Of a stretch of DNA of 64,000 nucleotides, positions 42,107-60,150 are shown piece after piece (within the stretch, counting starts at the first letter, position 1; the number at the start of each line of letters is the position of its first letter). The notes under the pieces were generated by a model that was given only the letters and a program-made list of their open reading frames with translations, searched no databases and was not told where the DNA came from. Made by a program: the position numbers and the translations under genes. Origin of the DNA: Pseudogymnoascus verrucosus (Eukaryota); assembly GCA_001662655.1 (NCBI GenBank), contig KV460218.1; one strand, 5' to 3'.

Positions 42107-42307
42107 TGTAAGGGTTGTAAACCTACAGGTCTCATAGGAGTCTAGGGAACTAGGCTAAGAGGCAGGAATGGGTATTGTATTCGTAGGGACAATAGGTCTA
42201 CGTAAATACAACAACTATTGACTGGAGGCCTTCGTCTTAGGCCTCCAGCCCCTTTTTTAGGCAGCTCCACAGCAGGGCACCCTATAGGGTGGACTGGCTA
42301 CGTGACA
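42107..42307. mobile_element. Probable solo LTR (~200 bp)
   Basis: TGTAAG....CGTGACA termini, TpA-rich interior, internal 10-bp perfect inverted repeat; no clean TSD. Confidence 0.5.
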
Positions 42308-43664
42308 AGCCCTTACGTGCCGGCCTTATAAGTTAGCATTGTTTGCAAAGTAGAAGTTATGTCGTGTCCTACCTTCTCAGCATCGTCCAGGATGTTTCCT
42401 TTCCCACTATTAAGCCGATCCTCATCTTGTCGAGCAGTATATGTAGCCAAGGGGTGGTCTGGTGAAGAAAACCATTTCTCGACTCGAGTTTGGCACATCT
42501 TATTCTTCTCATCGGTGGTCATGTTGCTATTGGTAATATAAACTTCAATAGTTGTCGTGTTTTGATATGGTCGAGTACTAACCACGTAGATGTTAGTTGG
42601 TTGCTGTGAATTCAATACCAGAGGAGATTCAACAAAGTGTGATCGTAGGACAATTGGAAGGTGAGGAGAAACGAGCAGAGCTAGGGATTACCTAACGAAA
42701 CAGGGCTCAGAGCCCTTCACGACTTCAGTCGAAGACATTGTATCTAGTCAAAGGTTGTCGGTGCGTCTAAGACTTCTGCTGAATGGTGCTTATGCTGATA
42801 GAATCCATTGCCAGAAATCGGGAGGGAGAGACTGCCTTTATACCCCCCCGCGCTCTGTTGGAAATACTCCCTCTACTTCGTCTCAGCATAGCAACCCACA
42901 TCGCCGGGCATACATACACCGCCCACCAGTTCGAAGCGTGGACCAATTACAAAAAGGATATTGATGTCTATAATGTAGTTGATAACAAGCAGGTCTCGCC
43001 GTAAATTCACACCACAGCTCGAGAGTTGCCAGAGGCATGCTTTTACGCCACCTATAACCCATGCTCCATCCCCTGTTCTTGGCGGTCTCACGCCTTGCAT
43101 GCCTCCCTCCGCATCCGCGGAAGACAGGGATTGAGGGCTTATGTAGCCTCTGTAGGAACTATGTTCTTTGTCCATTATAACGCCGACACCGAAGCAACTC
43201 TAACAATACGCGCGGCTCTGTAAAGGCTGCACATGTTATATTGATAACTATACTATGATGCGCATTGCTGAGCTGAATTTTGGAACTAAACTATGTAGCT
43301 CGATTGTACACTGGGAAACACACATGTTGGGGTCTTATTACAGAATCTGGAGTTGTGGGCAGGTGAAATGATGTCAACGTCGAGGCTTCCTAGCCCCACT
43401 CTCGTTAGCGCAAAACCGCCCAGAACCATCCTGCCCCTTTACTCCAGTATCTAGTACGTTGACCCGGGTACCCTATCAACCTGGACACAGCGTACATGGG
43501 TCAGCGTGAAAGGCGAGAGGCTTCAGACCAGAGGCTTCAGACTAACAACAACTGCCAAGCGTTCAGTGAGGCGCATAGTAGCTTACACTGGTTGTGTTAG
43601 GGCCATCCCGTGTCCCCGTGTCTACATCTGGCTAGGATGGTTATACCGCCATTACCACAACTGT

Positions 43665-43790
43665 GCAAGGCGTATGCCGTCAAAGGTGCATGCTATACAA
43701 GATGCATATTGTCCAAGGTGCATGCCGTTCAAGGTCCAAGGTGCATACCGTCCAAGGTCCAAGGTGCATGCCGTCCAAGGTGCATGCTAC
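43665..43790. repeat. Minisatellite, ~16-bp unit CCGTCCAAGGTGCATG
   Basis: About 6 imperfect tandem copies read directly. Confidence 0.85.
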
Positions 43791-43907
43791 TTGTTATCAT
43801 GTCACTGCGCTGTTCAGTAGGCATATAAAATCCGGTCTATTATTGGACCTCGCTGCTACAAGGGTATTGAGAGTTGACGCAAAAGGCCACTAAATCATAC
43901 TAGTAAG

Positions 43908-44115
43908 TATGTCCAGAATCACCGCGAAAAGCCACAAAAGACTAACAAGGATGCAAAATCGCCGCGAAAAGCCACCAAAAGCATTCTAGCAAGGATGCTC
44001 AGAATCAGCGAGAAAAGCCACAAAAGAATAGCAAGGATGCAAAATCGCCGCGAAAAGCCACCAAAGGCATTCTAGCAAGGATGCTCAGAATCAGCGAGAA
44101 AAGCCACAAAAACAT
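43908..44115. repeat. Minisatellite, ~42-bp unit (AAGGATGC..AATC..CG(C/A)GAAAAGCCAC) with higher-order dimer
   Basis: Five GAAAAGCCAC cores; alternating subtypes. Confidence 0.85.
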
Positions 44116-44369
44116 ACTGACAGAGATCCCTACCATCTGAAGCGTACACCCGGCCCCCTCTTGCGGATCCGCAGCAACCGGTCTGCAAGTACCGCCTAGC
44201 CTTAGAGAATAGACTAGTGGAGTATTATTGGCCCTGCATCTAGAATCTTTTACAGGGGTTCAGAATCCGCTGAATAGACACAAAAAAGAGAGGCTAGGTA
44301 ATAGAGATATTCTCTTATCATTATTCTAGTAGTAATAGGGGTTAAAATAACCCTACATGTTTAATAAAT

Positions 44370-44705
44370 TGTTTTGGGTCGAGGAAGACAAATTAGTCAG
44401 GGAGAGAAAGTGGTCGGGAAGAGAAATTAGTCGGGACGAGAAAGTGGTCGGGAAGAGAAATTGTTTCAGTCGAGGAGGATAACTTGTTTGGGTCGAGGAG
44501 GATAAATTGTTTGGGTCGAGGAGGATAACTTGTTTGAGTCGAAAAGAATAAATCGTTTAGGTTGAGGAGGATAAATCGTTTGCGTCGAGGAAAATAAATC
44601 GTTTGGGTCGAGGAGGATAAATCGTTTGGGTCGAGGAGGATAACTTGTTTGGGTCAAGGAAAATAAATTGTTTGGGTCGAGGAGGATAAATCGTTTGGGT
44701 CGGTA
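44370..44705. repeat. Minisatellite, 22-23-bp unit TTTGGGTCGAGGAGGATAA(A/C)T(T/C)G
   Basis: More than 10 tandem copies plus related AGAAAGTGGTCGGGAAGAGAAATT units. Confidence 0.9.
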
Positions 44706-44886
44706 GGTAAGAGGGCGCTGTTACTGTAACAGGGTAGCACGGGTTAAAACCCCACCTTTGTCCTACAATAGGTAGCTAGGATTAAAATCCCCCTGTCACC
44801 TACTCTTCAACGTAGGGATCAATTCCTCCTAAGTCACCTACAATAGGTACTAGGGATTAAAATCTCCCCTGCTTACACTAGCAAAG

Positions 44887-45020
44887 ATCCGACCATGTTC
44901 GCTCGCAAGTTCCGACCATGTTCGCTCGCAAGTTCCGACCATGTTCGCTCGCAAGTTCCGTTCATGTTCGCTCGCAAGTTCCGTTCATGTTCGCTCGCAA
45001 AGTTTTGCCCATGTTCAGTC
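44887..45020. repeat. Minisatellite, 23-bp unit TCCG(AC/TT)CATGTTCGCTCGCAAGT
   Basis: CATGTTCGCTCGCAA at 44894, 44917, 44940, 44963 and 44986. Confidence 0.92.
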
Positions 45021-45477
45021 GCATACTTACGTACGTTCAGTCACCCAGGTCACCTAGCTTACCCTCACTTACCCCTTGCCTCACCCTTCAGGCACCAGAC
45101 GGCCCTAGATATATGTAATGTCTACTCGCACGACTAAAACTAGCCTTTGCATCTAATCGCCTGCTTTGCTTTGTTAACTTTTTACTAAGCGAACCCCTAT
45201 AGATCTTATAAAGATCTTTCGACCATTTCCAACTAGGATATATCGACCTTCGAATTCCTTGGACGAGGGGGGTTTTAGCGGCGGTAAGGCAAGAATACGG
45301 ACCGGAGCCCCACTTGAACCCCTCCTAAGTTCCACCTGTCATAAACTTAATCTTACCCCTCTTTCTCCCCTTTACATACTTTACATACTTAAATCACAAC
45401 CTAACTTCTCTCTAATAGATACTATCGCACAACACCTGTTGGTCATCGCGACGGTACGGAGTACCAAGATAATCACC

Positions 45478-47079
45478 ATGGCGTCCCAACAGATTCGAGC
45501 CACGCCGCCCTCTAAAGACGCTATGCTCAATTCCTTCCTCGAAATCGTCCGTAATTACAATGCGCGCCCACCGCCCGGACGCAACAAGATCGTCTTTCCC
45601 GCGTGTCAACTCGTCGTGGAAATGCCCCTGCTTTTGAACCGGCCTAGCGAGCCCCTCCCATGCAGGGAGTCGCCGGCCGTGTTCGAGGCCATCAACGCCC
45701 ACTTCTCAGCCCAAGTGCACGCGTTTTTCAACGCACTGCATGACCTCGAGGATATGGCAGACAAACCGTCCTCGGACGACCTGGAACTCCTCCACCAGGA
45801 TGAATGGCTTCGGCCCGTCATCCAGATCACCAACCAGTCTTTCGACAACCCCGAAGGCAACGATGACTGCGTGCACCGCTGCTACCACACTCGCCGCCTC
45901 ACTGTCCAAAACCCGGAGAGCCTACCTCTCCTCAACCGCGTCATACAACTGCGCATCTTCCACGACAACGCTTACAGCCCAGATCCGGCCAACATGCGGC
46001 CCGTCTCCATGCGCACGCCCCTCGAACTCGCTACCCGCCTCCCTCACCTTCGCGAGCTACACTGCCCCTGGCTATGGGAGGAATTTCCCATTGCCTTCAC
46101 ATCTCAGGCGATGCGGAGAATTGCTCGCGTCTGGGAAGGCCCTTGGCGTGATGCCCGCGTTGAGTTCGGGCGGGGTGTGCGTCATGTCATGCCCTTGTTG
46201 CCGTCCTCCCTCACCAAGGTCAGTCTCTGGTTCTGGAGGACCAACGCCTATGGGCGTGAGGACCAAGCGGTGCAGATGCCTGACCTTGTCGGCGCATCCT
46301 TGTCGTCGCCATCGACCAATGAGTTTGAAGGCATGGACCCTGTGTCTCTTGGGTTGCGAGACCTGGGGAGTCGCCTGGAGGAACTAGACGTCATCGCGCT
46401 CATCACCCCTGATCTTTTCCATTCTAGCGGCGACGGTTTGTTATGGCCACGAATGGTGCACCTCAAAGTAGAATTCCACCCGTGCGCGCCTAACGGCACC
46501 TGGTACTTTTCCGGCCCGAGAGGCGAGAATCCCCACTCGACAGGATTCGCCATCACGAGAGAGGAGCACTACCCGTCCGAAGGCCTGGAATACGACGACG
46601 AGACGCACGCCTTATGGGATGATGAGGAGGAAGAGTACTGGGGTGATGAGGGCATATACGAACACTACACGCCCGATATGTTCCGTACGCGCCCCATCGT
46701 GGAGCGCATCAACCCTTTGCTCTTAGAGTTCGCCTCATCTCTACAACGGCAAAAGATGCCCTCCCTTCAAGACGCTGAGCTATTTACGTGGCTTACGTGG
46801 CGGCCCTCGAAGGACCGAGTTCAAGAGTATGAAGGGAGTGATGAGGTGCCTCCTACTACAGATGTGGAGCAGACCGTTATGTTCCGATGGGGGGTGAGAT
46901 ACGATGCGCCTAAAGGAGATGGGAAAGGAAAAGTGACGTGGCAGGTCGGTGACTGGAGGCCGGAGGACAAAGTCATTGCGGCGTTTAAGGATCTTGTGGG
47001 CGGGGAGGGGGAGAACATAGAGTGGAAAGCGTTTGAGTATATAGAAGAGAGGGAGCAAGATGTAGAAGCCTTTATCTGA
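45478..47079 (+). CDS. Uncharacterised 533-aa cytoplasmic protein with degenerate LRR-like segments
   Basis: Intact single exon from ACCATGG at 45478; no signal peptide; LPHLRELHC, LTKVSLWF, LEELDV, WPRMVHLKVEFHPCAPNGTWYFSGP; acidic stretch. Confidence 0.82.
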   Translation: MASQQIRATPPSKDAMLNSFLEIVRNYNARPPPGRNKIVFPACQLVVEMPLLLNRPSEPLPCRESPAVFEAINAHFSAQVHAFFNALHDLEDMADKPSSDDLELLHQDEWLRPVIQITNQSFDNPEGNDDCVHRCYHTRRLTVQNPESLPLLNRVIQLRIFHDNAYSPDPANMRPVSMRTPLELATRLPHLRELHCPWLWEEFPIAFTSQAMRRIARVWEGPWRDARVEFGRGVRHVMPLLPSSLTKVSLWFWRTNAYGREDQAVQMPDLVGASLSSPSTNEFEGMDPVSLGLRDLGSRLEELDVIALITPDLFHSSGDGLLWPRMVHLKVEFHPCAPNGTWYFSGPRGENPHSTGFAITREEHYPSEGLEYDDETHALWDDEEEEYWGDEGIYEHYTPDMFRTRPIVERINPLLLEFASSLQRQKMPSLQDAELFTWLTWRPSKDRVQEYEGSDEVPPTTDVEQTVMFRWGVRYDAPKGDGKGKVTWQVGDWRPEDKVIAAFKDLVGGEGENIEWKAFEYIEEREQDVEAFI

Positions 47080-47335
47080 TGAGACCTACCTAGGTAGGTA
47101 ACTATTACAGAATTAACAGGACAGGCTGGTAGAACAGACTCACTCCTTTTCAACATTCTAACGGAAGGCCGACAGTTGCGCTCACAGCTACTGGCAAGCA
47201 CGAGAGAAAACATTCCTTTCCTTCAATCGATCCTTATCTATATATGTACCTACTCCCTATATGGTTAAACTATCTATAAAGGAAACTACCAAAGATGTCA
47301 CTAGCACAGCAGCATTATTCGCCCCCCTAGTCCTA

Positions 47336-49966
47336 CTAAGCACTAACGCCGACACAATACGCCTCCCCTAACCAATAATTCGTCACACAATCGCTACTCA
47401 CAGCCGGATTCCACGCCAAAAACTGTGCCAATGTAAGGCCCGCCTGGCTCGCCATATCCGTGCAGGATAGACCGTCAGTCACAACAGCCCACTTATTGCA
47501 GTTGTCTGGCGAGCCGGTCATGGTCGGTGCAGGAGGCGTTGGCTTAGAAGTAGTCGTAGGTGCAGTCGTCGTCGGGGTAGAGGCGCCAGCGACACCAACA
47601 CAGTACGCCTCGCCCAGCCAGTAGTTGGTGCTACAGTCGGAACTGACAGCCGGGTTCCATGCTAAGAATTGGGCGAGGGAAATGCCAGCCTGGGTGGCCA
47701 TGTCTGTGCAGGAGAGGCCATCAGTGACGAGGGACCACTTGTTGCAGTCGGCAGGCGAGCCGGTCATGGTTGGGCCAGGCGGTGTTGGTTTTGTGGTCGT
47801 GAGACCACCGGTACTTGTGGGAGCTGCGGTGGTTGTTGGACTGCTGTCGTCACCCGAGATACCAACGCAGTAGGCCTCGCCTAGCCAGTAGTTGGTGGAA
47901 CAGTCGGAACTTACAGCCGGGTTCCACGCTAGGAATTGTGCGAGGGAAATGCCAGCCTGGGTGGCCATGTCTGTGCAGGAGAGGCCATCGGTGACGAGGG
48001 ACCACTTGTTGCAGTCGGCAGGCGAGCCAGTCATAGTTGGGCCAGGCGGCGTTGGTTTTGTGGTTGTGGGACCGCCGGTGCTTGTAGGGGATCCGGTGGT
48101 TGTTGAACTGCCGTCGTCGCCCGAGATACCGACGCAGTAGGCTTCGTCAACCCAGTAGTTGATCGAGCAGTCTGATGAAACGGCCGGGTTCCATGCTAGG
48201 AATTGCCCGAGGGTGATGCCGGCTTCAGAGACCAGGTCCGCGCAGGACAACCCGTCCGTGACGAGGACCCACTCGTTACAGTCTGCGGGCGAGCCTGACA
48301 TGGTCGGTCCTGGTGGTGTCGCGGAAGTTGGGGTAGCTGTACTGTCCTGTTCGATATACCATGAGCCGCAGTAGCGAACGCCCTTTTCAAATGCGCACGC
48401 CGGATCCGAGGCGTTGCCGAGGCCGGGATTCCACAAGCCAAATTCCTCAAGGTCGACGTTGTAGGTGTCCGCGGCGAGTTGGCAGTTGCTGCCGAAGGTG
48501 GAGCCGGTGAGGTTGAACTGGAAGTCGTCTCCGGCGAAGTAGTGCACGCAGTCGTCGCGCGTGCCCGTGGCTTCGGGGAGGGGCGTGTATAGTCGGGGGT
48601 AGGGGTTCTCGGTGGCGTCGGGGCGCTCGGTGTAGGGGATTCCGGTGAAGGGCGCAGAGGGGTCCAGGGTGACACTGGCGTAACCAGGGCGGCCCGTATA
48701 AGTGTTGATATCGCCCACTGCGGCGACGCAGTAAGACTCCAATGCAAAGAGGTTGGTGCAGTTGGTATTGACGGCCGGGTTCAGGAAGAAGAAGTCGGGG
48801 AGGGTAATGCCGAATTTGATGGCAACGAGATTGCAATAGTCGCCTTGTTGGACCGAGTACCACCGCCCGCAAGGCTTGTCGGCACCGCCGGAGCCGTCTG
48901 CTGCGTCAGTGGGCTTGGGAGCCGCAGTGGTGGGGGTAAGAGGGGGCAAGGCGGAGGTGTCGCTGGGGATCACGAACTTGCGGCCAGGAGCATCGACGCA
49001 GATTTCGGAGCCGTTCATCTTGGGAAGGTTTGCGCACCCGTAGCTAATGGAAGGGTTCCAGGCAATGAGTTGCGTCTCGGTGATGTTGGCTGCTGCAGCC
49101 ACGGCCTCGCACGTCGCATTATTGGGGACGGTGACAGTGGTGCACTGGTTGGTAATGCAGAGAGAGGTGCCAACGGCGGGAAAGTTAGTGCAGAAGGCCT
49201 CTAGGTCGTTGTCGGCTAGCAGCCAGTTGGTGCCAACGCCCTGGCTCTTGGATATGGTGTAGCAGTCTTCTGAGGCTTTAATGGTGTAGGTTGACCCCTC
49301 ACACACCTTGGCCGTTGGAGCAGGGGCCGCCGTGAAGTAGTCGATGGTCGTTGTTGCGACGGGGCGCCCCGTAATGCTGCAACTCGCCGTCATGCTCTCG
49401 TACAGCGACATGCTGGCTGCAATAGGCCCGTCACCGTACGGTGACCCCTCGCGCAGCCGCAGACGCTCGACCAGGCACTTGTCGCAGTCATCGGGTCGCA
49501 CCTGGTCCGTGGTGTTGCTAATGTAGTTGAAAGGGCTAATACCGGGATCCGAGAAGGCCGCTGCCAGGGCTGCAACTGGTCCGCAGAAACGCCCCTCGTC
49601 GTCCTTGAGGCAGGCATTCTGAAAGTAGAACTGCAGCGCTCCAGGAATATAGACCGCCGCGGCCTCGACCTCAAGGTCGACCGTGATGGTCTGGTTCAAG
49701 CACCCGGACTGTACTGATGACCGCCATGTATCAAGAGCGGATGAGCAACCGGTGGTGCAGATGCGCGTCAGTGACGCGGGCGGGTAGAAGACGTCTGGGC
49801 GGAGGTCCCTCACCAGCGGATCGCAGGCCGTGACATCGACGGTCAGGGCATTGGTGCACTCTACGGTAAGTGTCGAGGGAAGACTATCTGGGTAGAGCAG
49901 CACCGTGGCAGATGCTGTTGATGCAATCCCGAGAGAGAGAAGCAGGTTGACGACGAAGGTCTGCAT
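47336..49966 (-). CDS. Secreted multi-LysM (CBM50) chitin-binding protein, ~8 LysM domains
   Basis: Signal peptide MQTFVVNLLLSLGIASTASA; fungal LysM motifs (YTIKASEDC, ITETQLIAWNP, YSVQQGDYC..FLNP, WNPGL, 4x C.KW..V..G.SC...GI.L.QFLAWNPAV..DC..YCV). Confidence 0.95.
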   Translation of the reverse strand: MQTFVVNLLLSLGIASTASATVLLYPDSLPSTLTVECTNALTVDVTACDPLVRDLRPDVFYPPASLTRICTTGCSSALDTWRSSVQSGCLNQTITVDLEVEAAAVYIPGALQFYFQNACLKDDEGRFCGPVAALAAAFSDPGISPFNYISNTTDQVRPDDCDKCLVERLRLREGSPYGDGPIAASMSLYESMTASCSITGRPVATTTIDYFTAAPAPTAKVCEGSTYTIKASEDCYTISKSQGVGTNWLLADNDLEAFCTNFPAVGTSLCITNQCTTVTVPNNATCEAVAAAANITETQLIAWNPSISYGCANLPKMNGSEICVDAPGRKFVIPSDTSALPPLTPTTAAPKPTDAADGSGGADKPCGRWYSVQQGDYCNLVAIKFGITLPDFFFLNPAVNTNCTNLFALESYCVAAVGDINTYTGRPGYASVTLDPSAPFTGIPYTERPDATENPYPRLYTPLPEATGTRDDCVHYFAGDDFQFNLTGSTFGSNCQLAADTYNVDLEEFGLWNPGLGNASDPACAFEKGVRYCGSWYIEQDSTATPTSATPPGPTMSGSPADCNEWVLVTDGLSCADLVSEAGITLGQFLAWNPAVSSDCSINYWVDEAYCVGISGDDGSSTTTGSPTSTGGPTTTKPTPPGPTMTGSPADCNKWSLVTDGLSCTDMATQAGISLAQFLAWNPAVSSDCSTNYWLGEAYCVGISGDDSSPTTTAAPTSTGGLTTTKPTPPGPTMTGSPADCNKWSLVTDGLSCTDMATQAGISLAQFLAWNPAVSSDCSTNYWLGEAYCVGVAGASTPTTTAPTTTSKPTPPAPTMTGSPDNCNKWAVVTDGLSCTDMASQAGLTLAQFLAWNPAVSSDCVTNYWLGEAYCVGVSA

Positions 49967-51000
49967 TATGAAGGTTGTCCAGGCCCAATCCCTCGATTGC
50001 GGCTTACCTTGGGACCTTTAATGAGACAAGTCAGCGGGGATAACTGCTTTCTGTGGGAGGAAGAGAGGGGGCTCTTCGTGTGGCTGACGGCGGCATCGCA
50101 TCGGAAGAAGGACATTTTTCTTAGGCAGGTTGCTGAGCATCTTTTAGACTCTTAGATGGAAACAGCATACAAGAATACGTAATTCGGCTTACAGCTCTAG
50201 GTTCCCCCCCTGTCCTTTGGCAGATATGGCTCATGGGTGGATGCTACCCTTATTCCACCTGTTACTAAAATAAGTGAGGGCAGTGAAACCGCCCGCTGTC
50301 ACAGGCCATCAAACTTAAATTGCGGGCCGCTACGGCTTGCCATCTTCGGCCAATTATCCTATTTCTTATTCGCGTAGGCAATATTATGCAGGTACAGTAC
50401 GCTTAAATGTAAGTCTAAGTCCCAATCTGGCCAAGCGATGCACGTTCAACGCCAAGACGGAAGACTGAAGAGATAACATAGCTCCGGGTATCAAGGACGG
50501 GATTGCATTTTCGCACTATCTTACTATCTTAATTAATATTGCAACGCCTAGAATCCTATAGGATTGTGAACCCTGACGGGACCTGCTTTTCTAGTGGTAG
50601 CTTGCATCTTGGGGGCTGCTTATTCATGTGTTAGTTGAGATCTAGACTCAGTGACTCGGGCATCACTTTGGCACTTCCGCCTTTTCCGAAGCAAGAAAAG
50701 GTCCGCATAATTACCGCAGAGATGCTCGAATGCAATGATACCCAAAAAGGTCCCCATTTACGCTTCTACCTGCCTAATAGGATGTCGATAGTGGCGAGAT
50801 CGGACCTTGATATTACCCTCGGCTGCGCGAAGGCGGAGTGAACTGTCATCGATGCCGAGTGCAAGGCCTGACCAGGGTAAGTGGAGTAGAAATGAATCCC
50901 ACCTACTCAAGATATCATCTTATACAAGATGCAGCGGCAGCTTGCTGCCCTCCAGGTCATAGACATTCCCGAGCAGGTACAACACCCGTGACGGACGGCC

Positions 51001-54000
51001 ATGCGGTATCCTATTGTCCTTGCTCTTCTATGGGGGCAGAGGCTCGCCGAAGGCTTGCCCTGGCACCAGGCAGCAGATCGTGCTGCTGTTGCTGATTTGC
51101 CAGCAACGTGTCGGAATCCCGTGTCGTGAGTGTCTTGTTGCCCCCTTTGAGCTGTCTTACTAGACGTGGTCTAATTCGTGATTGCCGCAGACCGTTTGAC
51201 TACTCAGCCAAGCTCAGACGCGAATATGAGCTGCCACTGTGTCGGGACGGCGACGAAACTCTTGGGGTGACTCCCTTCCTCGGCGCCATGGACACGCCGT
51301 CTTTACTGAGCGGCCGAGCAACAGACGACGACTACACGTGCGGGCCGGACCGGCCTTGCGCCAACAAGGCTTGCTGCCCCAAGGCCACGCTGTCGTGCAA
51401 CTACGGCGAGGAGGCGTGCGGCACATCGGGCATCTCGCCCAACGAAGTCTGCTGGTCCAACTGCGATGCCAAGTCTGAGTGCGGCAAGGACGCCAAAGTG
51501 CCCGGCCAGGAATGCCCCCTCAACGTCTGCTGCGGCAAATGGGGCTTCTGCGGCATGACCGAGGATTACTGCGACAAGAAAGATCATGGTACCACCGGCG
51601 GCTGCCAGTCCAACTGCGACCAGCCTGGCCCTAAGAACAAGGCCAACTCGCAGACCCGCATCATCGGCTACTACGAGGGCTGGCGAGCTAACAGCGCCTG
51701 TCAGGGCATGGGGCTCAAGGACATCCCCGTAAACTCCCTGACGCACCTGTACTTTTCCTTTGCGTCCATCACCCCGGACACGTACAGCATCGCGCCTATG
51801 GACGGCATCGCCGGGTCTCTGTTCTCCGAGTTCACCAACCTCAAGAAGAAGAACCCCGCCCTCAAGACCGTCATCGCCATTGGTGGATGGACCTTCAACG
51901 ACCCGGGCCCAACCCAGAAGGTCTTCAGCGATATGGTGGGCTCGGCACAGACCCGTAAGACCTTCATCGACAACCTGTTGAGCTTCCTGCGCGAGTACGC
52001 CTTCGACGGCGTCGACTTTGACTGGGAGTACCCCGGAGCTGATGACCGCGGCGGCGTCGACGCCGATGGCAAGAACTTTGTCACATTCCTCAAGGAGCTC
52101 GACGACGCCAACAAGAAGCAACCCGTCAAGTACGTCGTTTCCTTCACGTTGCCTACCTCATACTGGTACATGCGTCACTTCGACCTCAAGGCCGTCGACC
52201 ACGTCGACTTTGTCAACGTCATGTCCTACGACCTGCACGGCGTCTGGGACGGCAAGAACCCAATCGGCCAGAAGATCTACGGGCACACGAACATCACTGA
52301 GATGGAGCAGGCCTTTGACCTTTTCTGGCGCAACGACGTTCCCGCGAACAAGCTCAACATGGGCCTCGGATTCTATGGCCGCGCCTTCCAGCTGCAGGAC
52401 CCCTCGTGCAGCAAGCCGGGGTGCGGCTTCAAAGGCGGCGCTACCAAAGGAGGCTGCAGCGGCGAGTCGGGCATTTTGAGCTACCGTGAGATCATGGCCG
52501 TTATTGATGCCAAAAAGATCAAGCCCGTACATGACAAGAAGGCAGGCGTTAAGTATATTACGTGGAACAACGACCGTACGTTAATATTCTTTGTTCTCCC
52601 CCATTTAGGGTGTCATCGAGGGTCGTTTTACTCTCGGACCGCCCCCGAACTACCCCTGAAACACCCAAAACAAGAATAATACAGCTAACAATGTTGGGTA
52701 GAGTGGGTGTCGTACGATGACGCCGACACCTTCTCCCAGAAAAAGGACCTAGCTAAGGACCTAGGGCTGGGTGGCTACCTCATCTGGGCCATCGATCAGG
52801 ATGACGAGCACTTGACGGCACTGCAGGCCGTCATCTCGCCTAAGAAGCTAGGTGACTTGGGCGCGGCCGGCGACAAGGACGACTGGCAATCATCTAACAA
52901 GCATTGCTACATCACATCCTGCGATGGCAAATGCGACACCGGCGACATCAAAATTACCGACCAACCCTGCGGCGACGACGACAAGCGCAGCAAGCTCTGC
53001 TGCCCGCTGTCTGGGGCCCCGAACCCCAAAGAGTGCGCATGGCGCGGCAACCCCCCCTTGTGCAACGGCCACTGCCATGACGACGAGGTCATGATGGAGA
53101 TGAACAAGTGGGGCGACGGTGGTGGGTGCAATGATGGCAACAAGGCCTACTGCTGCAAGAGCCCGCTGGCCGAGGAAAACAGCTGCTACTGGAGTGGTGT
53201 TGGCGGCTCCTGCAAAGGCGATGACTTGCCGCTGACATTTTCGGGCACCGTTCTAACCATCTTAGAAGACGTGGCCAAGGTCATCCTTCGCGTCGTCGGG
53301 CGCGCCTATCCTCTCACCGCCCTAGCAGGAGAAGCGCTCCTCTTGGTGCTCGACGAACTCGATCTCGACACAGACAAGTACTACTGCTGCCCTAAAGAAG
53401 ACATCCCCAAATGGAAGAACTGCGAGTGGTTCGGCAAGCCCGGCAGCTGTTTCGACGGACACTGCCCAGACATGACATATGCCCAGCTGACCGACAGCTA
53501 CTTCGGCGGTGGCGAGACTTGCGGCTGGCAAGCTTCTCGAGTACGCACCTTTTGCTGCGAGCCGTCCGAGGACCCCTTGTTTCTGCCCGTACCCCTAGGG
53601 AATCTTTTCCAGAACCCGCCAGATAGTGATAGTGTCGACACCGACTTCTCCCTCGAAACGGACAAGGACTCAGACACGGAGCAGAACCCCAACGATGCAG
53701 CCTTCCAGTTCGTCGTGCTCGCTTCGCCCGAGGAGCTGCAGGTCTCCATCGACAAGCGCGACGGCTCCCACTGGGACGTATTCTCAGGCTGCGACTCGGC
53801 CATCGGCGATGAAGGCCCCCACACGGTGCAGATGGTATGCACAGACTTCTCCGAGGGTAGCAACTGCCACAAGATCGGTCTCGGCCATGGTGTCCCTGGC
53901 ACCATCTTGGAGATGCCCGCCGGGTGCGGCCCCGGAAAATACGCCATTGCAAAAGACATGGTCCCAGCCTCTGAAAAGGTCCGTCTTCCCCGTCACCTCG

Positions 54001-56582
54001 AACACCTTTCAGCCGCCCACACCCCCATCGTCTACGATTTGACCTTCGACTACGACTTTACCCGCGTACCCCGCGACCTTGGCGACACCCAGATGCGCAT
54101 TGACTTCAGCAACCAGGACGACTATTGGAACACAGTCGTCTCGGCGGCCGGAAACACTAAGAAAAAAATCAAGCGCTCCCTCGCCGAGGCTGGGGGCAAC
54201 CACGCCCGCTGGTTGGAGGAAGAATACCGCGACGACTACCATTTTGGGGGACTCTCGCGTCGTGACCTCGAGGAGCGCTGGTTCGGCTCAGGTGTCCTCG
54301 ACTGGCTTGCCCGCATTGTCCGCCCGGAAATCAAGCGCGAGTTTACTTATGATTACCAGGACACCCTGACAGCCAAACTCATTGACGAGACCTGGCAATG
54401 TACCCGCAACGACATCAACTACGAGGGCCACATCCTCGCCCAGGCCCTCCTTAAAGTGAACATAGCGACAAGCTTCGGGTTTACCCTAATCGTCACAAAG
54501 CTGACCCCTCCCCTCGACATGTCCCAAAGCTACCTAACCTTCTATAACAAGGGCGAGATCACGGGAGTTCTAACCCTCGAAGCCGTTGCTAAGTTTTCCT
54601 ACCACAAGGGGGACGTCATCGTGAACATCCCTTTCCCAGGCGCCTCCTTCAAAATCCCAGGAATCGCAACTATCGGCCCGCAGCTGACGGTCGAGGGCAG
54701 CATCGACGCCTCGCTGACCCTGTCGGGCAAGGTGGAAACTCGTCTCGAGTTCGCCAACTGGGAGGTTCGCCAAGTCCTTCCCGACAACGGCGACAGTAAC
54801 TACACGCCCAAAGAGATCGGTGACGGCGACCCGGACCTCAAGCGCACCGGCGACAACGAGGACCTGGACGAGCCGACCTTCTATGCCGGCGCCCAGGCCA
54901 TCGGCGACGCGACGGCCAAGATCTCAGCGGCGGCTGAGTTCGGCATCCGCTTCGACAAGCGCTGGGACGTCGAACCGGCCGCCGCGGCTGTTGTGGCCGA
55001 GGCCAGCGTCATGGTCAAGATGGGCGTCGGCATCTCCACCAAGGACACCTGCCCCTTTACATTTGGGGTCGATGTCGGCGCACGTCTGTTTGCGCGCGCA
55101 ACAGCACCCGGCTTCAAGTGGCCAGGAGCCGAGGTGGCCATCACGCCTGCTTATAAAAAGCCCATCATCGAGGGCGGCACATGTCCGGGCCTAGGACCCC
55201 TCCCGACCAAGCGTGATCTTAACTCCATCCTCACCATTGATGGCAACGATACCCGTAGCCATAGCCATGGCCATGGCCACACCCATACCCACAATAGCCT
55301 AAGCCACGGCCATGGCCACATCCACAATAGCCGCGCCCTGGTCAAACGAGCAGCGGTCTGGGGTCCAGTACTCAGCGTGCCCGTGGGAAGCTACTTCTGC
55401 CCACCCGAAACCGATGACAGCGCTGGCCCGGGTACCATCTGCTCTAAGATCGGGTACGCCTGGGATGAGGACAATGTTATCGAGGACGCACTTCTAAGGC
55501 GGGCCCTCGAAAAAAGGAACTCAAAGCCGGCCGAAATCTGCGGCCAAAGAATCACCTTCGAATACCCGTCACCCTCGGAGGCCAAAGCTCTGAAGAACCC
55601 GACCTATGGCTTCGAAAGCACCGACTGCAAGGACTACAAGTTTGGCGCTCTCCCGGCCGATGTCCCCGGTGTCGACTACGAAGCCGAGCACGTTCTCGAA
55701 GCTCAACTCATCAAACAGTTCTTCGAGTATGTCGCTAAGAATGTTGGCCCCTTCCCTCACCCCGACCCTGAAAAGGCTAAGTTGGGCACGACACTCCAGT
55801 TCTGCCCGCTCGTCAAACTGCTCTGGAACGTTCCGGTTGAAATCCCGAACCTCGATACCGCCTCGGGGATTGGCGCCCTCCTTACTCCCTATAAACATGT
55901 CATCAACCAGTTTCCCACCAAAACATGGAAGAACAAAGAGTACGTCCTCCTCGACACTAACATCAACTCCCCGCCTAAGGCGGGAGCTTGGGCCGGATTC
56001 AGTAGCAAGGGCAAAAATATCCAAATCGTTTCTCTCAAGAAATGGCTCGGCACCGAACCCGACAACAACCCCCAAAGTCCCTCCGGCCAAACCCCCCCCA
56101 AATACCCCAGCACTAGCAAAATCGCCACCATCGGCGGTGCCGAGGAGATCATGAAGTCGATGCGCGCCATCCTCGGCTCGCGCCTGTACCACAACACCCC
56201 CGCCGTCTCGACCATTCTCAAAGCCCAAAAGGAGCGGGTAGGCGAGGTGCTCCGGCGGCTCGACACCGAGGTCCTGCCCGCCAATCCCAAGAAAGAAGGC
56301 TGGGCGCCCTGGGCGCCACTAGGGCTGAAGGGAATGTGGGACACGTTCATGACGGGCAAGATGGCGCTGGTTGTTACCAAGTCGAACATGGTAACTAACG
56401 ATATCTTGCCGCGCATGCAGGCCTTGTGGGCGGACCAGGCCGCGAGGGACGCGGCTAAGATTGACGATAAGGATAAGGCAGATGTAGTGGAATTGAAGGA
56501 GAGGAAACAGAGGCTGATTGATACTATTGATGCGTTCGCTGCTATTTTGCAGACGACGCCGGCGTGGCTGTTAGCATTTTAG
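51001..56582 (+). CDS. Subgroup C (killer-toxin-like) GH18 chitinase with hevein/CBM18 domain and long C-terminal extension; join(51001..51125,51191..52575,52702..56582), ~1796 aa
   Basis: Signal MRYPIVLALLWGQRLAEG; canonical introns 51126-51190 and 52576-52701 give a continuous frame; CPLNVCCGKWGFCG (CBM18); AIGGW, FDGVDFDWEYP (intact DxxDxDxE), MSYDLHG, WAIDQD. Confidence 0.93.
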
Positions 56583-56619
56583 AGGGGTCATTTTCTGTTA
56601 CGATATGTTAGGGGGTTAT

Positions 56620-58998
56620 CACTAGTATATAATTAAGCTTGTTAGCTTACGTTTCATTATAGACTAAACTAATTTAAGTTAAAACTTGCATAGAAATGCT
56701 CTTATAATCTATGCTATAACACTATAACACTTTCTTCCTACCTTAATATAAGACCTGTTTTCATTCTTCCCCTTTATTTAATTCTATGCTTAAATAGCCA
56801 TTTCTACACTAAAGATAGACCCTTCCCTATTTTCCCTAAAGTACTAAGCCCTATCTCTCTAATCTATATCCTATTATCTAACTACTAATACTAAGCTAGC
56901 ATCTCTTATTTAAATAGCATAGTTAGATAAAATTAACCTTAACATTACTATCTAGTAGTTAGTAGGTATCCTAGGTAAATAGGAAGCTTAGGACATTATA
57001 ATAGAGTTATATAGGTATTCTACCTTAATAGTTACTATTATATAATAACGTATTTCCTAGGCAAGCTAGTTACTTAGGCAAGCTAGTTACTTAGGCAAGC
57101 TAGTTACTAAAACACTAAAATTAACTATTACTACCTACTACTATACTACTACCCTATATAATAACCCTTATTTAATTGTAATTAATTCCTAGCACCTCTT
57201 ATATAAGGACATAGGGAACTATATTATAAGAAGTTATATATAGGAATATAAGTTAGATATAAGTTAGTATAATCCTATAGGTCTCCTATAAAGGATATAA
57301 AAAAGATAAAGGGGGAACCCTCTATTCTTATTTTCCTTCTATACCTAAAACCCCTCTAACTTAACTAACCCCCTATTTACCTAAGGCTTCCTTATACTAT
57401 ATACCTAAGGCTTATAGTTATAATTAAACTATAACTACCCTAAGTCTTAAGGGCAGCATATAACAACTATAACTAACCTAAGTAAGGAGGCATCCTTATA
57501 CTACCCCCTACCTTTAAAGGGTGCTTTATCCTTAAAGTATATATATAGAACTCTATATTTAGTTTATTATATAAGTTATAGGTATTATAGCCTAAGTTGT
57601 TGCTAAGGAGGGTAGAGGAGTAAGTGTTTCTTTATTTAAGGTAGTAAGTTATATATAAGGGTCTAAGTTAGTATCGAATTAAGTCTAATTAGGGCTATAG
57701 ACTCTAGATTGTTTGTGTAAGGAGAGATAGATCGCGCTAAACCTAATTTAGACAGCTTTGTTATAAGCTAGAATATGAAATCGAGGTTCGCCTAATTCCT
57801 GTTGTTTTCTTTATAACAACAACGCTAAACCCCCCCTCTAAGACTAGTAAGTAGCCCCTCTTAAACGTATAGAAGGATACTAATTGATTGTTTTTAGATA
57901 CAAAACCAATTCGAACGATTCGGTAGGTTGAGGAACTGTACTAGCATAGTAGTGATAACTTAGGCTAGGCTAACGGGAATTGCAGATTTCTAATTTAAAG
58001 ATGCTAGTTCCTATGCCCTCTAGGGCTTTTGCAGATTCCTTCTACGTCCTGTACGTCTGCTGCCTTTAGGCAATTTCCTATAGGGCTGTAGCCTATACTT
58101 ATGTCTAGTCCTCAACTAGCTTAAAGTGCCATTACTACACTTCGTAGCATTCTATGTGTGTTCTAGTAGGTTTCCTATTGCTTTTTAGTTTTGCTTTTAG
58201 CTTGTTCTTAGGTTTGTTTAGTGTTGACTTAGTAGGAATAGCTGCCCTAGTTCCTAGGGACTAAGTTCGCTGCTATCGTCGCTACTAAAGCAGCTACCCC
58301 CCTTGTCCCTACTAACGTCGTTAACGCTGCCCTTAAGGCTAAGTGTGTCCTATTGCTTGCTACTGCCTCTGTCCCTAAGTTCTAGGACAAGGCGACTTAG
58401 GACCTCTATAAGGAGGCCTATACAACTTACGCAGCCCTTAAGTCTCTTAATTTAAGACTTAAGGTAAGTGAATCTCCTTTCCTAGTAGGGTATTAGTGCT
58501 GACCTAGGTTAGGCTGTTCGTTTATCGCTACGCTATCTTTAGACGGAGTAGGTAGAGGTTCCTAGCCTCTTAAAGGAGGTAGTAAACGCAGTAGAGGTAG
58601 GTGCTGTAGCTGTCGTTGCCGTTGCTACAAAGTTAGTCCTAGCACCTACCCCCTATAGGAAAGAGAAGGAGAAGGAGAAGGAGGTAGAGAATAGGGTTAG
58701 GGCCTCCTATAGAGAGTAGGGGGTAGGCCTTATGTTAGAGGGAACTTAGGTGTAGTCTTTTATGTAGGGTCACTTTAACCCTTTGTCTCTTATAGTAGTA
58801 GCCGCTTGTTACGACGCTAGTAAGATGTTTAGGAAGGGTGGCTTCTATAAGGGCTATAGCTCTAAGGGTGCCCTAGCTTAGAGGGTGTTTAGTTTAGTGT
58901 TGTAGGTAGCAACAACGCTGTTTTTCCCTACTTTGCTGTGCCTCTTATAATTGTAGCTTAGCTTGCCTATCTCCTATTCTATAATCTAACTAGGTAGG
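56620..58998. mobile_element. Heavily RIP-mutated AT-rich repeat relic
   Basis: No ORFs >=60 aa in 2.4 kb, strong TpA excess and CpA/TpG depletion; 3x GGCAAGCTAGTTACT(T)A at ~57060-57110. Confidence 0.7.
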
Positions 58999-59481
58999 TG
59001 TAACGCTGGGTCTTAAACTATAAGACTCACAGAGGTTTCGTTGCGTTGGTTTACTTAACAGAGGAGGCAGGGGATTAGACACAAAGGCTTTCGTAAAACA
59101 CGTTACAGTATATAACAAATACTATATTGAGTTGAGCACGAAGCTCCTATCTAAGAACTAACTATCTACTTATATAGTGGCGTCGTGCCAAAGGGGATAG
59201 TTAGGATAGTTAGATAGCCCTAACTATCCCAACTATCCAACTATCTATCACGTGAGCTATTCTCTTTCCGGTACCTGTGATTCTTCCAGTACCTGTCCAT
59301 CCGGTACCTCCTAATCCTCAGGTGCCTAACTGTCTTCCGGTACCTGTAAACCCAGGTACCGGACACCCATCAGGTGCCTGATAACTGACCCTGCCTTAAA
59401 GGTGGTCAAATCGCTAACATTCTCATTACTACTATAACCGGTGTGTCGGCGAAACTGTAGCCGTAAACGCTAGCCGTAACA
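58999..59481 (-). repeat. 3' LTR (483 bp) of the Gypsy element
   Basis: TGTAACG...CGTAACA termini; polypurine tract GGAGGGGGA on the minus strand at ~59487-59495 next to it. Confidence 0.85.
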
Positions 59482-59595
59482 CTAGGTCCCCCTCCGAGAG
59501 GCCTAGTCCCTAGGTCTTGCTGACTAAGGAAATGTGCTAACTACTTAAGTGGGGTGATGCCCACCACTATCCATGGGGCAGGTCAGGCTGCAACC

Positions 59596-60150
59596 ATGTC
59601 TTCTTCCAAACATACCAAAATCAAAGAACGTCAACTGCTTGCTCAACGTATCGAAAAGGACGGAATCCCAATGTCCCCTTGTTCTAACTGTGTATGCAGC
59701 GAACGTACTTGTATCGTTGCTCCAGGTTACCGTCGTTGTAGTGAATGTGCTCGCCGCAATTCCAAATGCGACGCTTGCGCTCCAAGCGCTGCGGAGTGGG
59801 AGAAACTCCGTAAAGAAGAGGAACGTTTAGAGGCGGAGGAAGAGGCTGCCGCTGCCTAAGAGCAAGAGGCCTACGCTCGTCGCATGCGCCTTCGTAAACA
59901 GCAGAAAGCTCTGAAGACTCGTGGTGCGGAGATGCTGCGGCGCGGTCTTCAAAACCTAGACGAGCTGGATGAGGCCGAGGAGAAAGAGCGCAAGGAGGCC
60001 GAAGCTAAGGAATCCTTCCCGCACAGCCCTCCTACTACTGACCTCGGGGGTGCCGTTTCCGAGCACGACTACTTGTCGGCCCTTTCTCCTGGTTTCTTCG
60101 AACGTTGGGGTGTCGACGGTGGAACTCCGCCAGCAACTCTAGGCAGCTGA
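59596..60150 (+). pseudogene. Antisense extra ORF of the retrotransposon: Zn(II)2Cys6-like motif + coiled coil, one premature stop
   Basis: CSNC-x5-C-x8-CSEC-x6-C, then an E/K/R-rich helix; single TAA at 59857-59859 with the frame continuing to TGA at 60150. Confidence 0.75.

Follow-up and report, generated by a model that had tools for sequence, protein, structure and literature searches.

Do the three adjacent genes of this locus, which encode a large chitinase, a LysM protein and a protein of no known family, belong together, and for what purpose? The label killer-toxin-like has been attached to subgroup C chitinases since 2005. According to the accessible text of Heneghan, Salzberg & Wolfe 2024 (10.1101/2024.10.25.620242), a link to real toxins, which have genes of their own, was recently made for the C-II branch alone, and no toxin proposed for the C-I branch was found in the available portions of the literature searched. 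The trio described here may be a weapon and its antidote. The window is a 64,000-nucleotide stretch of Pseudogymnoascus verrucosus DNA (contig KV460218.1), of which the locus occupies 45478..56582. A reading made from the sequence alone had placed three packed, intact genes here, and the coordinates and frames of all three were borne out, as follows.

45478..47079, + strand: gene A, 533 aa, single open frame, predicted cytoplasmic, leucine-rich-repeat (LRR) solenoid model, without Pfam family
47336..49966, - strand: LysM gene, 876 aa, multi-LysM, without catalytic domain, TAL6-like, signal-peptide-like N-terminus
49967..51000, no strand: divergent spacer, 1034 bp between the LysM and chitinase start codons
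51001..56582, + strand: chitinase gene, 1796 aa; exons 51001-51125, 51191-52575, 52702-56582
51477..51617, + strand: CBM18 (Chitin_bind_1) module, Pfam, 41 bits
51657..52802, + strand: GH18 catalytic domain, Pfam 200.8 bits plus a tail in exon 3; interrupted by intron 2
52869..53741, + strand: Cys-rich region, residues 560-850, 22 Cys, identity 0.56-0.76, no Pfam family
53742..55226, + strand: beta-rich middle region, residues 851-1345, weak DUF7223 match, long beta hairpins in the model
55227..55349, + strand: His-rich variable linker ending at K1385-R1386, identity 0.15, 34% gaps, model pLDDT <50
55350..55517, + strand: segment between two dibasic sites, the LEKR site being 55506-55517
55518..56579, + strand: C-terminal domain (CTD), ~355 aa, candidate released effector, alpha/beta part plus helical bundle, pLDDT ~86-97
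55686..55706, + strand: E1499-H1500-x-x-E1503-x-Q1505 motif; E, H and E invariant in alignments
55965..55979, + strand: N1592 and K1596 in E-[FY]-V-x-L-x4-N-x3-K; N invariant in alignments

Contigs of runs X1 and X2 span all three genes. The divergent interval between the LysM and chitinase genes, given earlier as ~1 kb, measures 1034 bp. Gene A and the LysM gene are convergent, with a stop-to-stop gap of 256 bp; the LysM gene lies between gene A and the chitinase, and the CTD-encoding end of the chitinase and gene A are therefore not neighbours.

The two chitinase introns (GTGAGT..CAG, 65 nt; GTACGT..TAG, 126 nt) are both removed in a relative, since contigs of its runs X2 and X6 join 52575 to 52702 (GT..AG) and 51119 to 51191. 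The GH18 motif DxxDxDxE is intact (FDGVDFDWE at residue 314), and no LysM module was found by Pfam in either part of the protein. In the accessible text of 10.1101/2024.10.25.620242, C-I chitinases are told from C-II by the presence of CBM18 in a chitinase without a LysM module; with a Chitin_bind_1 match of 41 bits and no LysM match, the enzyme looks, by its domain content, like the C-I type of GH18 subgroup C. It had been described as a 1796-aa CBM18-GH18 protein with ~1200 extra residues, which agrees with the ~1250 residues found after GH18; across 41 chitinases the extension (~1290 residues) aligns end to end. The chitinase tree was built from search matches alone, and "secreted", for the chitinase and the LysM protein, refers to N-terminal hydrophobic segments judged by inspection. 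Within the extension, no Pfam family was found for the Cys-rich region. The DUF7223 (PF23865) match in the middle region (E 7.3e-4, 19.3 bits) is below the 27-bit curated cut-off, and P0402, a relative that has the CTD and no GH18, scores 273 bits against this family. Foldseek returned weak rows for the middle region to leukocidin and haemolysin chains (E 0.02-0.6).

The LysM protein scores 59.5 bits for LysM over its whole length (cut-off 20.9) and matches no other family. When its eight segments were searched singly, three were recognised, each below 20.9 bits, and five were not. The 267-nt tandem repeats at 47340-48386 correspond to four C-terminal LysM-like units, one of which matches LysM unit 3 with 38% identity (E 2e-12). 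The count of eight LysM units proposed earlier is upheld only in part. The protein is TAL6-like in being predicted to be secreted, multi-LysM, free of a catalytic domain and adjacent to a subgroup C chitinase.

Up to residue 1350 the chitinase shares 0.9-1.0 identity with its orthologues; from ~1351 this falls abruptly to 0.5-0.75, a drop seen in five of six comparisons, the sixth being a near-identical strain. The conserved N-terminus that the sequence-only reading had foreseen in the chitinase alignment is thereby confirmed. The swapping of C-termini foreseen with it is contradicted: the CTD is alignable in all 41 chitinases, and its tree agrees with the N-terminal tree except for one long-branch row. 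Of the proposed cleavable C-terminal toxin there stands a distinct module behind conserved dibasic sites, diverging about three times as fast as GH18, without domain swapping. K1385 is present in 37 of the 41 chitinases and R1386 in 39; in the LEKR site, the commonest upstream dibasic site (15/45), K1441 is present in 25 of 33 CTD family members and R1442 in 30. A dibasic site conserved at the domain boundary of a predicted secreted protein is characteristic of Kex2-type processing. The homology of P0402 to the chitinase begins exactly at IEKR/LEKR. The CTD family comprises at least 169 relatives at E <= 1e-3, counted as cluster representatives. The CTD ends many other proteins with unrelated N-terminal parts, in the order N-terminal part, linker, xEKR and CTD, and several CTD-bearing proteins begin with signal-peptide-like segments (CTD family alignment A4). 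An exact start at a conserved Kex2-type site, together with recurrence after other, unrelated N-terminal parts of secreted type, suits a released functional unit better than an appendage; the CTD is probably released from the chitinase.

Polar residues of the CTD are invariant among family members that are 25-40% identical. E, H and E of the E-H-x-x-E-x-Q motif are present in 41/41 chitinases and 33/33 family members, and Q in 41/41 and 28/33; N1592 is present in 41/41 and 33/33, and K1596 in 41/41 and 25/33. No known toxin family matching the CTD was found, and Pfam contains no match even at E <= 10. An hhalign comparison with GmrSD_C/DUF1524 gave a probability of 4.7% and P 0.0085 (controls 0.35 and 0.7), with the invariant EH not aligned. 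Atlas scores of 0.75-0.79 are at lead level only, and all named nearest Atlas clusters are His-Me-finger-type nucleases. By eye, the E-H-[VI]-[LM] and hydrophobic-L-L-x4-N motifs follow the same order in GmrSD_C/DUF1524 and in the CTD, whereas their spacing in the CTD is about twice as long. These comparisons give a weak lead that may link the CTD to His-Me-finger nucleases. For the CTD as an antagonistic effector, we regard the chances as evenly balanced.

Gene A had been taken for a non-secreted protein of no known family converging on the LysM gene, and this description is upheld: it lacks hydrophobic segments, and none of the Pfam families, LRR ones included, was matched at E <= 0.01. The VIA matches of its AlphaFold2 model (pTM 0.86) span residues 6-522 and include NOD2, NLRP3, RanGAP, TIR1 and TLR chains, with Z from 10.6 (rmsd 4.1, 232 aligned) down to 7.1, a range in which repeats match easily. 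The rows that were recognised are LRR proteins, and gene A models as a leucine-rich-repeat solenoid. It has 192 homologues. No match at E <= 10 was found in the PDB sequence set, which includes a killer-toxin immunity structure. Three Seiridium gene models fuse gene A with C-terminal chitinase pieces, and one of them has the entire CTD. That gene A is an inhibitor of the CTD is conceivable, though we think it rather unlikely.

In six genomes, drawn from three fungal classes, locus tags put gene A at most three genes away from the chitinase (CHGG_08589/08587, N0V93_005960/61/63, DV738_g1687/88/89, RB595_008035/08033, V494_00724/00722 and V492_02826/02828). All three proteins are found on equal-sized contigs in Xylaria nigripes, Hypoxylon CI-4A and Nemania FL0916, gene A and the chitinase on equal-sized contigs in Nemania FL0031 and Truncatella, and gene A and LysM on an 11.5-kb contig in Colletotrichum sojae. 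Syntenic species stand in the same order in the gene A and chitinase trees, and in both Pseudogymnoascus is closest to Chaetomium/Neurospora-type Sordariomycetes, the chitinase being nested among Sordariomycetes (100*). Of 25 metagenome loci containing a relative of gene A, 19 have a usable downstream flank, and in 4 of these LysM is adjacent (~4/13 once near-identical loci are merged); a chitinase or CTD is near in none of the 25; the neighbours at the remaining loci are NACHT/ankyrin, TPR, HET and AflR genes. Close gene A copies occur in Talaromyces rugulosus, Aspergillus fischeri and Apiosordaria, from which no close chitinase was found among the 120 matches listed. The linkage of the third gene to the pair, which the sequence-only reading had wanted to see in other genomes, thus holds in part: gene A is syntenic in several genomes and shares the chitinase phylogeny, but most of its relatives have no LysM gene or chitinase beside them. 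Gene A shows cross-class transfer, and the three genes are very likely a co-inherited and mobile unit.

Over 45 pairs, mean p-distances are 0.15 for GH18, 0.22 for the middle region, 0.48 for the CTD and 0.44 for gene A; the CTD diverges ~3x as much as GH18, and gene A about as fast as the CTD. For gene A, dN/dS is 0.40-0.54, and the LysM gene of the same locus pair gives 0.25; all values are <1. Distances correlate across every domain (r 0.93-0.96) through shared ancestry, and relaxed constraint could account for how fast the CTD and gene A diverge.

These data can also be read without any toxin, and we give this a substantial chance, if clearly below one half. The locus would then be an ordinary subgroup C chitinase and LysM pair serving chitin nutrition, wall remodelling or mycoparasitism, the tail with its CTD a non-toxic appendage for structure, anchoring or regulation, and gene A a fast-evolving bystander in the same mobile stretch. 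Chitinase-LysM pairs co-regulated on chitin are on record in the accessible texts for tac6/tal6 of Trichoderma atroviride (PMC4392113) and chiC1/lysm2 of Clonostachys rosea (PMC7176902), where subgroup C chitinases are put at 150-250 kDa; most gene A relatives lack an adjacent LysM gene or chitinase, the CTD matches no known toxin family, and dN/dS is <1. A mere appendage, however, accords poorly with a CTD whose start coincides with a conserved Kex2-type site and which is found again after unrelated N-terminal parts of secreted type, or with polar residues kept invariant across members 25-40% identical. A bystander accords poorly with the position of gene A, kept across three classes, with the tree it shares with the chitinase, and with the Seiridium models that join it to the CTD portion.

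Gene A might instead be tied to the unit in another capacity than immunity, as an LRR adaptor or sensor that, during production of the chitinase, regulates expression, secretion stress or wall-damage signalling. LRR solenoids serve generally as scaffolds for binding proteins, the synteny and shared phylogeny of gene A and the chitinase would be accounted for, and unlinked gene A copies lie among NLR/HET-type genes; Pfam finds no signalling or F-box domain in gene A, however, and a rate near that of the CTD is not expected of a regulator, which makes this improbable.

In the accessible text of Heneghan, Salzberg & Wolfe 2024 (10.1101/2024.10.25.620242), zymocin-like clusters of Pezizomycotina combine a C-II chitinase that carries LysM modules, a small gamma-toxin that is encoded separately and joined by a disulphide to a terminal Cys, and Imm homologues; none is reported in Leotiomycetes or with C-I chitinases. 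That this is such a C-II cluster, with the chitinase as carrier only, a separate small secreted anticodon nuclease and gene A as the Imm homologue, is very improbable despite a zymocin-like GH18 and chitin-binding carrier architecture and the LysM-only genes of those clusters, because the chitinase lacks a LysM module and a terminal Cys (the last, C1538, is 258 residues before the end at 1796), the PDB sequence set yields nothing for gene A at E <= 10, the clusters are unreported in this class and with this chitinase type, and a crude single-exon scan of 41000-45477, 49967-51000 and 56583-60000 found no small secreted gene, that is, no ATG-started ORF of at least 60 aa with a signal-like start.

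The reading we tentatively prefer, with somewhat less than even confidence, is a horizontally mobile three-gene unit built on a C-I-like "killer-toxin-like" chitinase that is a modular secreted pro-protein. The CBM18 and GH18 head would bind and open chitin walls; the beta-rich middle part might, as a guess only, serve translocation. A Kex2-type protease would cut off the CTD at the KR and LEKR sites, and the freed CTD would act as an effector on another cell, a His-Me-finger-like nuclease being one possibility. The divergent LysM protein would bind chitin and shield or modulate the producer's own wall, as is known for relatives, and the cytoplasmic LRR product of gene A would bind and neutralise CTD reaching the producer cytosol, as an LRR ribonuclease inhibitor does secreted RNases. 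The toxin-immunity reading of the locus as a whole is partly supported, and we place it between unlikely and tentative. A bolder and unlikely extension is that C-I chitinases are self-contained colicin-like toxins with a chitin head, a beta-rich translocator and a Kex2-released nuclease-like CTD, the last belonging to a large undescribed secreted fungal effector family on interchangeable N-terminal targeting parts; gene A would be cytosolic immunity, and its unlinked, horizontally moving copies orphan immunity against neighbours' toxins. Were the CTD a released effector, C-I chitinases would have their weapon built into the one polypeptide, and a function could be assigned to a family comprising at least 169 cluster representatives. 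Self-protection by an LRR immunity protein would be novel in fungal antagonism, and cross-class transfers would show weapons spreading as units.

The pairing of such a chitinase with a divergent multi-LysM gene is already in print; the sequence-only reading had noted that subgroup C chitinases often cluster with LysM genes. As here, a large secreted CBM18-GH18 protein adjoins a secreted multi-LysM protein in tac6/tal6 and chiC1/lysm2, and TAL6 has internally duplicated LysM units (accessible text of PMC7176902), comparable to the four 267-nt tandem repeats; the available portions of these accounts mention no third gene, CTD family or Kex2 boundary. New here are the unswapped extension, the CTD with its LEKR start in other proteins, and the linkage, tree and rate of gene A.

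With zymocin and zymocin-like clusters the locus shares a chitinase as putative wall-directed carrier, a precursor with predicted protease processing, LysM-only genes, patchy distribution and horizontal transfer, and by analogy it would work like zymocin if the CTD were a toxin. It differs in having the candidate effector within the chitinase polypeptide, no Cys at the terminus and an LRR protein as candidate protector. The resemblance to zymocin claimed earlier survives for the GH18 and chitin-binding carrier architecture; otherwise it belongs to C-II chitinases with a separate toxin gene.

Bacterial polymorphic toxins (CdiA-CT/CdiI, Rhs) have a conserved delivery part, a boundary motif, a variable C-terminus and a linked immunity gene. 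The locus is like them in the sharp drop of conservation at a short boundary motif and in its fast-evolving small linked gene, and unlinked gene A copies can be read as orphan immunity genes. It differs in that the C-termini are homologous and it is the N-terminal carrier that varies across the CTD family, that the candidate immunity gene does not sit immediately downstream, and that the host is a eukaryote with ER secretion. What is left of the parallel first drawn is the variable C-terminal domain; C-termini are not exchanged, and gene A stands beyond the LysM gene.

Ribonuclease inhibitor is a cytosolic LRR protein that inhibits secreted RNases. No sequence relation between it and gene A was found, and the repeats of gene A are irregular, with long insertions; like it, however, the predicted product of gene A is a cytosolic LRR solenoid, which could clamp a secreted enzyme entering the cytosol.

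The three adjacent genes that the sequence-only reading had described are all present in the window at the positions given there, and they are intact. The features of the cluster and its flanks are as follows:

43663-44998, densely packed minisatellites directly upstream of gene A (23-nt unit x11 and x5, 86-nt unit x3, also 17-nt and 33-nt units)
45478..47079, + strand, gene A (the third gene), a single 533-codon frame
49966..47336, - strand, LysM gene, 876 residues with a hydrophobic N-terminus
exons 51001-51125, 51191-52575 and 52702-56582, + strand, chitinase gene, 1796 residues, introns with canonical GT..AG
55244-55324, His-Gly/His-Thr repeat linker, the least conserved stretch of the chitinase (identity 0.15, 34% gaps among 40 relatives)
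60197-63592, - strand, downstream broken Ty3/Gypsy-type retroelement, whose reverse transcriptase, integrase zinc-binding and chromodomain-like remnants are scattered across eight or more short frames

Pfam assigns CBM18 and GH18 to the chitinase, in which the catalytic DxxDxDxE motif is intact, and LysM to the partner protein; gene A matches no Pfam family. The best matches are Pseudogymnoascus proteins, at 96% for gene A, 84-90% for the chitinase tail, and up to 91% over a partial gene model for the LysM protein. Contigs of sequencing runs X2 and X6, which derive from a relative 90-99% alike and whose "RNA" label is a guess, connect 52575 to 52702 (GT..AG) and 51119 to 51191 (six letters differing); therefore, both predicted chitinase introns are spliced out in that relative. 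Parts of all three genes are covered by contigs of runs X1 and X2, and parts of the LysM and chitinase genes are covered by X6 contigs among the pieces listed, while the spacer 50213-51014 is nearly without cover in X1, X2, and X6, which carries no evidential weight. Upstream of the cluster are ordinary genes (WD40, RabGAP-TBC, old yellow enzyme, seryl-tRNA synthetase, and GH76), followed by a gene-poor stretch. The G+C content is 0.55-0.60 in the cluster versus 0.39-0.49 in the surroundings, and the cluster is marked as an island by the retroelement and the low-G+C flanks. Elsewhere in the window, the 2-kb bin at 14001-16000 has a G over C skew of 0.348, and a minus-strand frame there has a weak DUF2722 match.

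The C-termini of the chitinase had been expected to be swapped among homologues; instead, the tail aligns end to end in 41 chitinases. With exon 3 (1292 residues) as the query, 204 proteins were found at E <= 1e-3 among 8000 candidates scored, and many of the 120 matches listed span approximately 100% of the query, with identities down to 37%. In 40-residue blocks of the 41-chitinase alignment, identity to the window is 0.56-0.82 before the His-rich linker, 0.15 within it, and 0.25-0.49 beyond it. Single orthologues match the window at an identity of 0.9-1.0 through residue 1350, then at 0.5-0.75 from residue 1351 on; this abrupt drop was observed against two other Pseudogymnoascus strains, Chaetomium globosum, Neurospora tetraspora, and Truncatella, the sixth comparison being with a near-identical strain. 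Over 45 pairs from ten syntenic genomes, the mean p-distance is 0.15 for GH18, 0.22 for the β-rich middle region (residues 851-1345), and 0.48 for the C-terminal domain (CTD; the last ~355 residues, after LEKR). Exchange of the CTD by recombination was rejected, since the CTD tree follows the N-terminal tree except for one long-branch row, and the CTD branches are approximately 4-8 times longer than the N-terminal ones in the close clade. As read from these alignments and trees, the pattern of the tail is one of rate acceleration and not of domain exchange.

When the last 410 residues were used as the query, 169 proteins were found at E <= 1e-3 among 1.84 billion cluster representatives; the motif counts that follow rest on 147 of these relatives, many of which are fragments. 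E-H-[VILT]-[LMI]-E is present in 79 of the 147, and 74 of the 79 begin with M. Among these 74, 45 have a dibasic site 40-120 residues upstream (most commonly LEKR, in 15, with IEKR in 4), and 19 have a signal-like start. In an alignment of 33 CTD family members, several longer proteins have a signal-peptide-like start, and their layout is an N-terminal part, a low-complexity linker, xEKR, and the CTD. The N-terminal parts cannot be aligned with each other or with the chitinase, so that variation in the family lies at the N-terminal (carrier) end, which is the reverse of the C-terminal variation that had been anticipated. Pfam gave no family for 41 of 44 relatives, and the others are one protein with DUF7029 and DUF7223, one with a sub-threshold lectin match, and one with a low-complexity match. 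The first of these three lacks GH18 and has the CTD behind DUF7029 and DUF7223, and its similarity to the window begins exactly at IEKR/LEKR (27%, 298 columns, E 5e-19). In LEKR, K1441 is conserved in 25 of the 33 family members and R1442 in 30 of 33; at the other dibasic site ahead of the CTD, K1385 is conserved in 37 and R1386 in 39 of the 41 chitinases. E1499, H1500, E1503, and N1592 occur in every sequence of both alignments (41 chitinases and 33 family members), and C1479, C1538, K1596, R1682, and W1716 are invariant among the 41 chitinases. The predicted structure of the CTD is confident (pLDDT about 86-97). The C-terminal module is distinct and fast-evolving, and it is probably cleavable.

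The CTD matches nothing in Pfam at E <= 10, and its profile gave three irrelevant matches only against PDB sequences (E 0.31-1.7). In the search of PDB sequences with exon 3, only the GH18 tail was matched; neither Foldseek with the chitinase tail (at E <= 1e-3) nor a viral library search yielded a match. In a protein-language-model atlas, the CTD is nearest to unnamed ascomycete clusters (0.90-0.93), and the nearest named clusters are only His-Me-finger nucleases (GmrSD_C/DUF1524, HNH_4, GH-E, AHH, and Endonuclease_1; 0.75-0.79, lead level). Ten DUF1524 domains from bacterial genomes have the motifs E-H-[VI]-[LM]-P-Q and G-N-L-x-L-L-x4-N, and the CTD counterparts are E-H-V-L-E-x-Q and E-[FY]-V-x-L-x4-N. 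Alignment of the CTD with DUF1524 by hhalign (probability 4.7%, P 0.0085; two controls, P 0.7 and 0.35) paired the second motifs but matched the His of DUF1524 to a CTD His that is not conserved. On this evidence, the CTD may plausibly be a nuclease, but this is no more than a guess and is less likely than not to be right. The middle region is modelled with moderate confidence as long β-hairpins, and weak Foldseek rows to leukocidin/haemolysin pore formers (E 0.02-0.6, probability <= 0.08, rmsd over 20 Å) offer a lead only for a possible likeness of this model. In the VIA wide search with a 963-residue model, the matches were filled by helical bundles at residues 562-963 (best Z 7.0), so that the search bears on the helical part rather than on the α/β part.

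The partner protein had been described as carrying eight LysM units; three were detected singly, each under the cut-off, and the remaining five were not detected singly. Four 267-nt tandem repeats at 47340-48386 of the LysM gene encode the four C-terminal LysM-like units, and one of these is 38% identical to LysM unit 3 (E 2e-12). In a contig of sequencing run X9, 405 nt are skipped between 47177 and 47583, a hint that strains may differ structurally. A Penicillium roqueforti protein (P0344, 820 aa), in which Pfam calls no LysM, shares 85% identity with one third of the LysM protein, and this species also has a gene A homologue.

Gene A has 192 homologues at E <= 1e-3; of the 120 listed, every named one is a Pezizomycotina protein annotated as "hypothetical" or "uncharacterized". 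The protein has no hydrophobic segment, 0 matches to PDB sequences at E <= 10, and no Foldseek match to the PDB at E <= 1e-3. Its AlphaFold2 model is confident (pTM 0.86). In VIA-align, the top rows over residues 6-522 have a best Z of 10.6 (rmsd 4.1, 232 aligned), a level common for repeats, and the Z values for NOD2, NLRP3, RanGAP, and TIR1 are 9.7, 9.5, 8.6, and 8.5, respectively. The entries ranked first are leucine-rich repeat (LRR) proteins. On the basis of the model, gene A most likely encodes a cytosolic, irregular LRR solenoid.

The main rival reading takes the cluster for an ordinary pair of chitinase and LysM genes accompanied by a bystander; we hold this to be a serious prospect at appreciably less than an even chance. 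Against a bystander, the linkage of gene A to the pair is upheld by several syntenic genomes and by like-ordered trees. Locus tags place gene A at most three genes from the chitinase in C. globosum, Gnomoniopsis smithogilvyi, a Chaetothyriales species, Gaeumannomyces hyphopodioides, and two more Pseudogymnoascus strains; in further species, the proteins were found on equal-length contigs. The syntenic species have the same order in the gene A tree and in the chitinase tree (the latter by FastTree). The mean p-distance of gene A is 0.44 versus 0.48 for the CTD, approximately 3 times that of GH18 (45 pairs, ten syntenic genomes); because the domain and gene A distances are intercorrelated through shared descent (r 0.93-0.96), this rate match is suggestive and is not a test. 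The dN/dS of gene A (Nei-Gojobori, custom script) is 0.40-0.54 versus four metagenome relatives, and that of the LysM gene is 0.25 in the same locus pair. In three Seiridium proteins among the 120 homologues listed (P0122, P0118, and P0098), a near-complete gene A is joined in frame to C-terminal chitinase pieces, which include the whole CTD in P0122; these may be merged neighbouring gene models or real fusions.

In favour of a bystander, a strict link is not borne out. Of 25 metagenome loci with a gene A relative, 19 have a usable downstream flank, and 4 of these show a convergent LysM gene next to gene A, or about 4 of 13 once near-identical loci are merged. A chitinase or CTD was found in 0 of the 25, only a few of which extend far enough to show one. 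A distant CTD gene hidden in the gene-A-only loci was rejected within their flanks, where a six-frame hmmsearch recovered no CTD other than that of the window (E 2e-102). One locus (L001:2246-8270) has gene A and the convergent LysM gene, 87% identical in the best segment, with no chitinase in the 4 kb past the LysM gene and an otubain-like ORF instead. At other loci, the neighbours of gene A are NACHT/ankyrin, TPR, HET, and AflR genes. An ORF of ~590 aa is upstream of gene A in two loci (L002:3-1769 and L009:3516-5279, both on the minus strand; 37% identity); no Pfam family matches it, and it was rejected as a paralogue of gene A (hhalign probability 0.1%).

In the gene A tree, Talaromyces rugulosus (P0012) groups within Pseudogymnoascus (100/100), the proteins of Aspergillus fischeri (P0021) and Apiosordaria backusii (P0019) are almost identical (branches 0.015 and 0.012), and the four rows from Eurotiomycetes require four changes in every bootstrap tree. 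No close chitinase from T. rugulosus, A. fischeri, or Apiosordaria is among the 120 listed. On this tree, the gene A copies of T. rugulosus and of A. fischeri/A. backusii look like recent cross-class transfers; contamination of single assemblies may also lie behind the apparent transfers. The Pseudogymnoascus clade of the chitinase tree is nested in Sordariomycetes beside N. tetraspora and C. globosum (100*), and other rows from Leotiomycetes, among them a Pseudogymnoascus paralogue of 37% identity, are placed far off. The GH18 of the window is 95% identical to that of C. globosum. From tree discordance alone, we infer horizontal transfer.

The proposal of a delivery chitinase with a cleavable C-terminal toxin, a LysM helper, and an immunity gene thus retains a distinct C-terminal module and a co-inherited third gene and loses the exchange of C-termini and the strict link of the third gene. 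Our preferred account, to which as a whole we give a chance somewhat short of even, is that the cluster may be a mobile antagonism unit. In this account, the putative effector would be encoded in cis within the chitinase and released by Kex2, and the LRR protein of gene A would be a candidate inhibitor of this effector. A literature search found no description of the CTD family, DUF7223/DUF7029, or the third gene, and a search by six locus tags found no paper; an earlier account in papers on subgroup C chitinases is possible.

Two papers describe subgroup C ("killer-toxin-like") chitinases as proteins of 150-250 kDa similar to the α/β precursor of zymocin, the Kluyveromyces lactis killer toxin (PMC4392113, PMC7176902). 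LysM-only genes adjoin the genes of such chitinases and share their regulation, as in tac6/tal6 (PMC4392113) and chiC1/lysm2 (PMC7176902). According to Heneghan, Salzberg & Wolfe (10.1101/2024.10.25.620242), chitinases of the C-II branch are clustered with a small secreted γ-toxin and sometimes an Imm gene, and they contain LysM modules and, in most, a near-terminal cysteine; the authors state that C-I chitinases are without LysM, and their survey found no such cluster in Leotiomycetes. By domain content only, the present chitinase is C-I-like because CBM18 is present and LysM is absent. Its last cysteine is 258 residues before the C-terminal end, and a crude scan of the cluster flanks found no small signal-bearing ORF; a zymocin-type cluster is therefore very unlikely. 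The zymocin-like C-II clusters have a separate small γ-toxin gene, for which the crude flank scan found no counterpart here, whereas the putative effector of the present cluster would be part of the chitinase itself.
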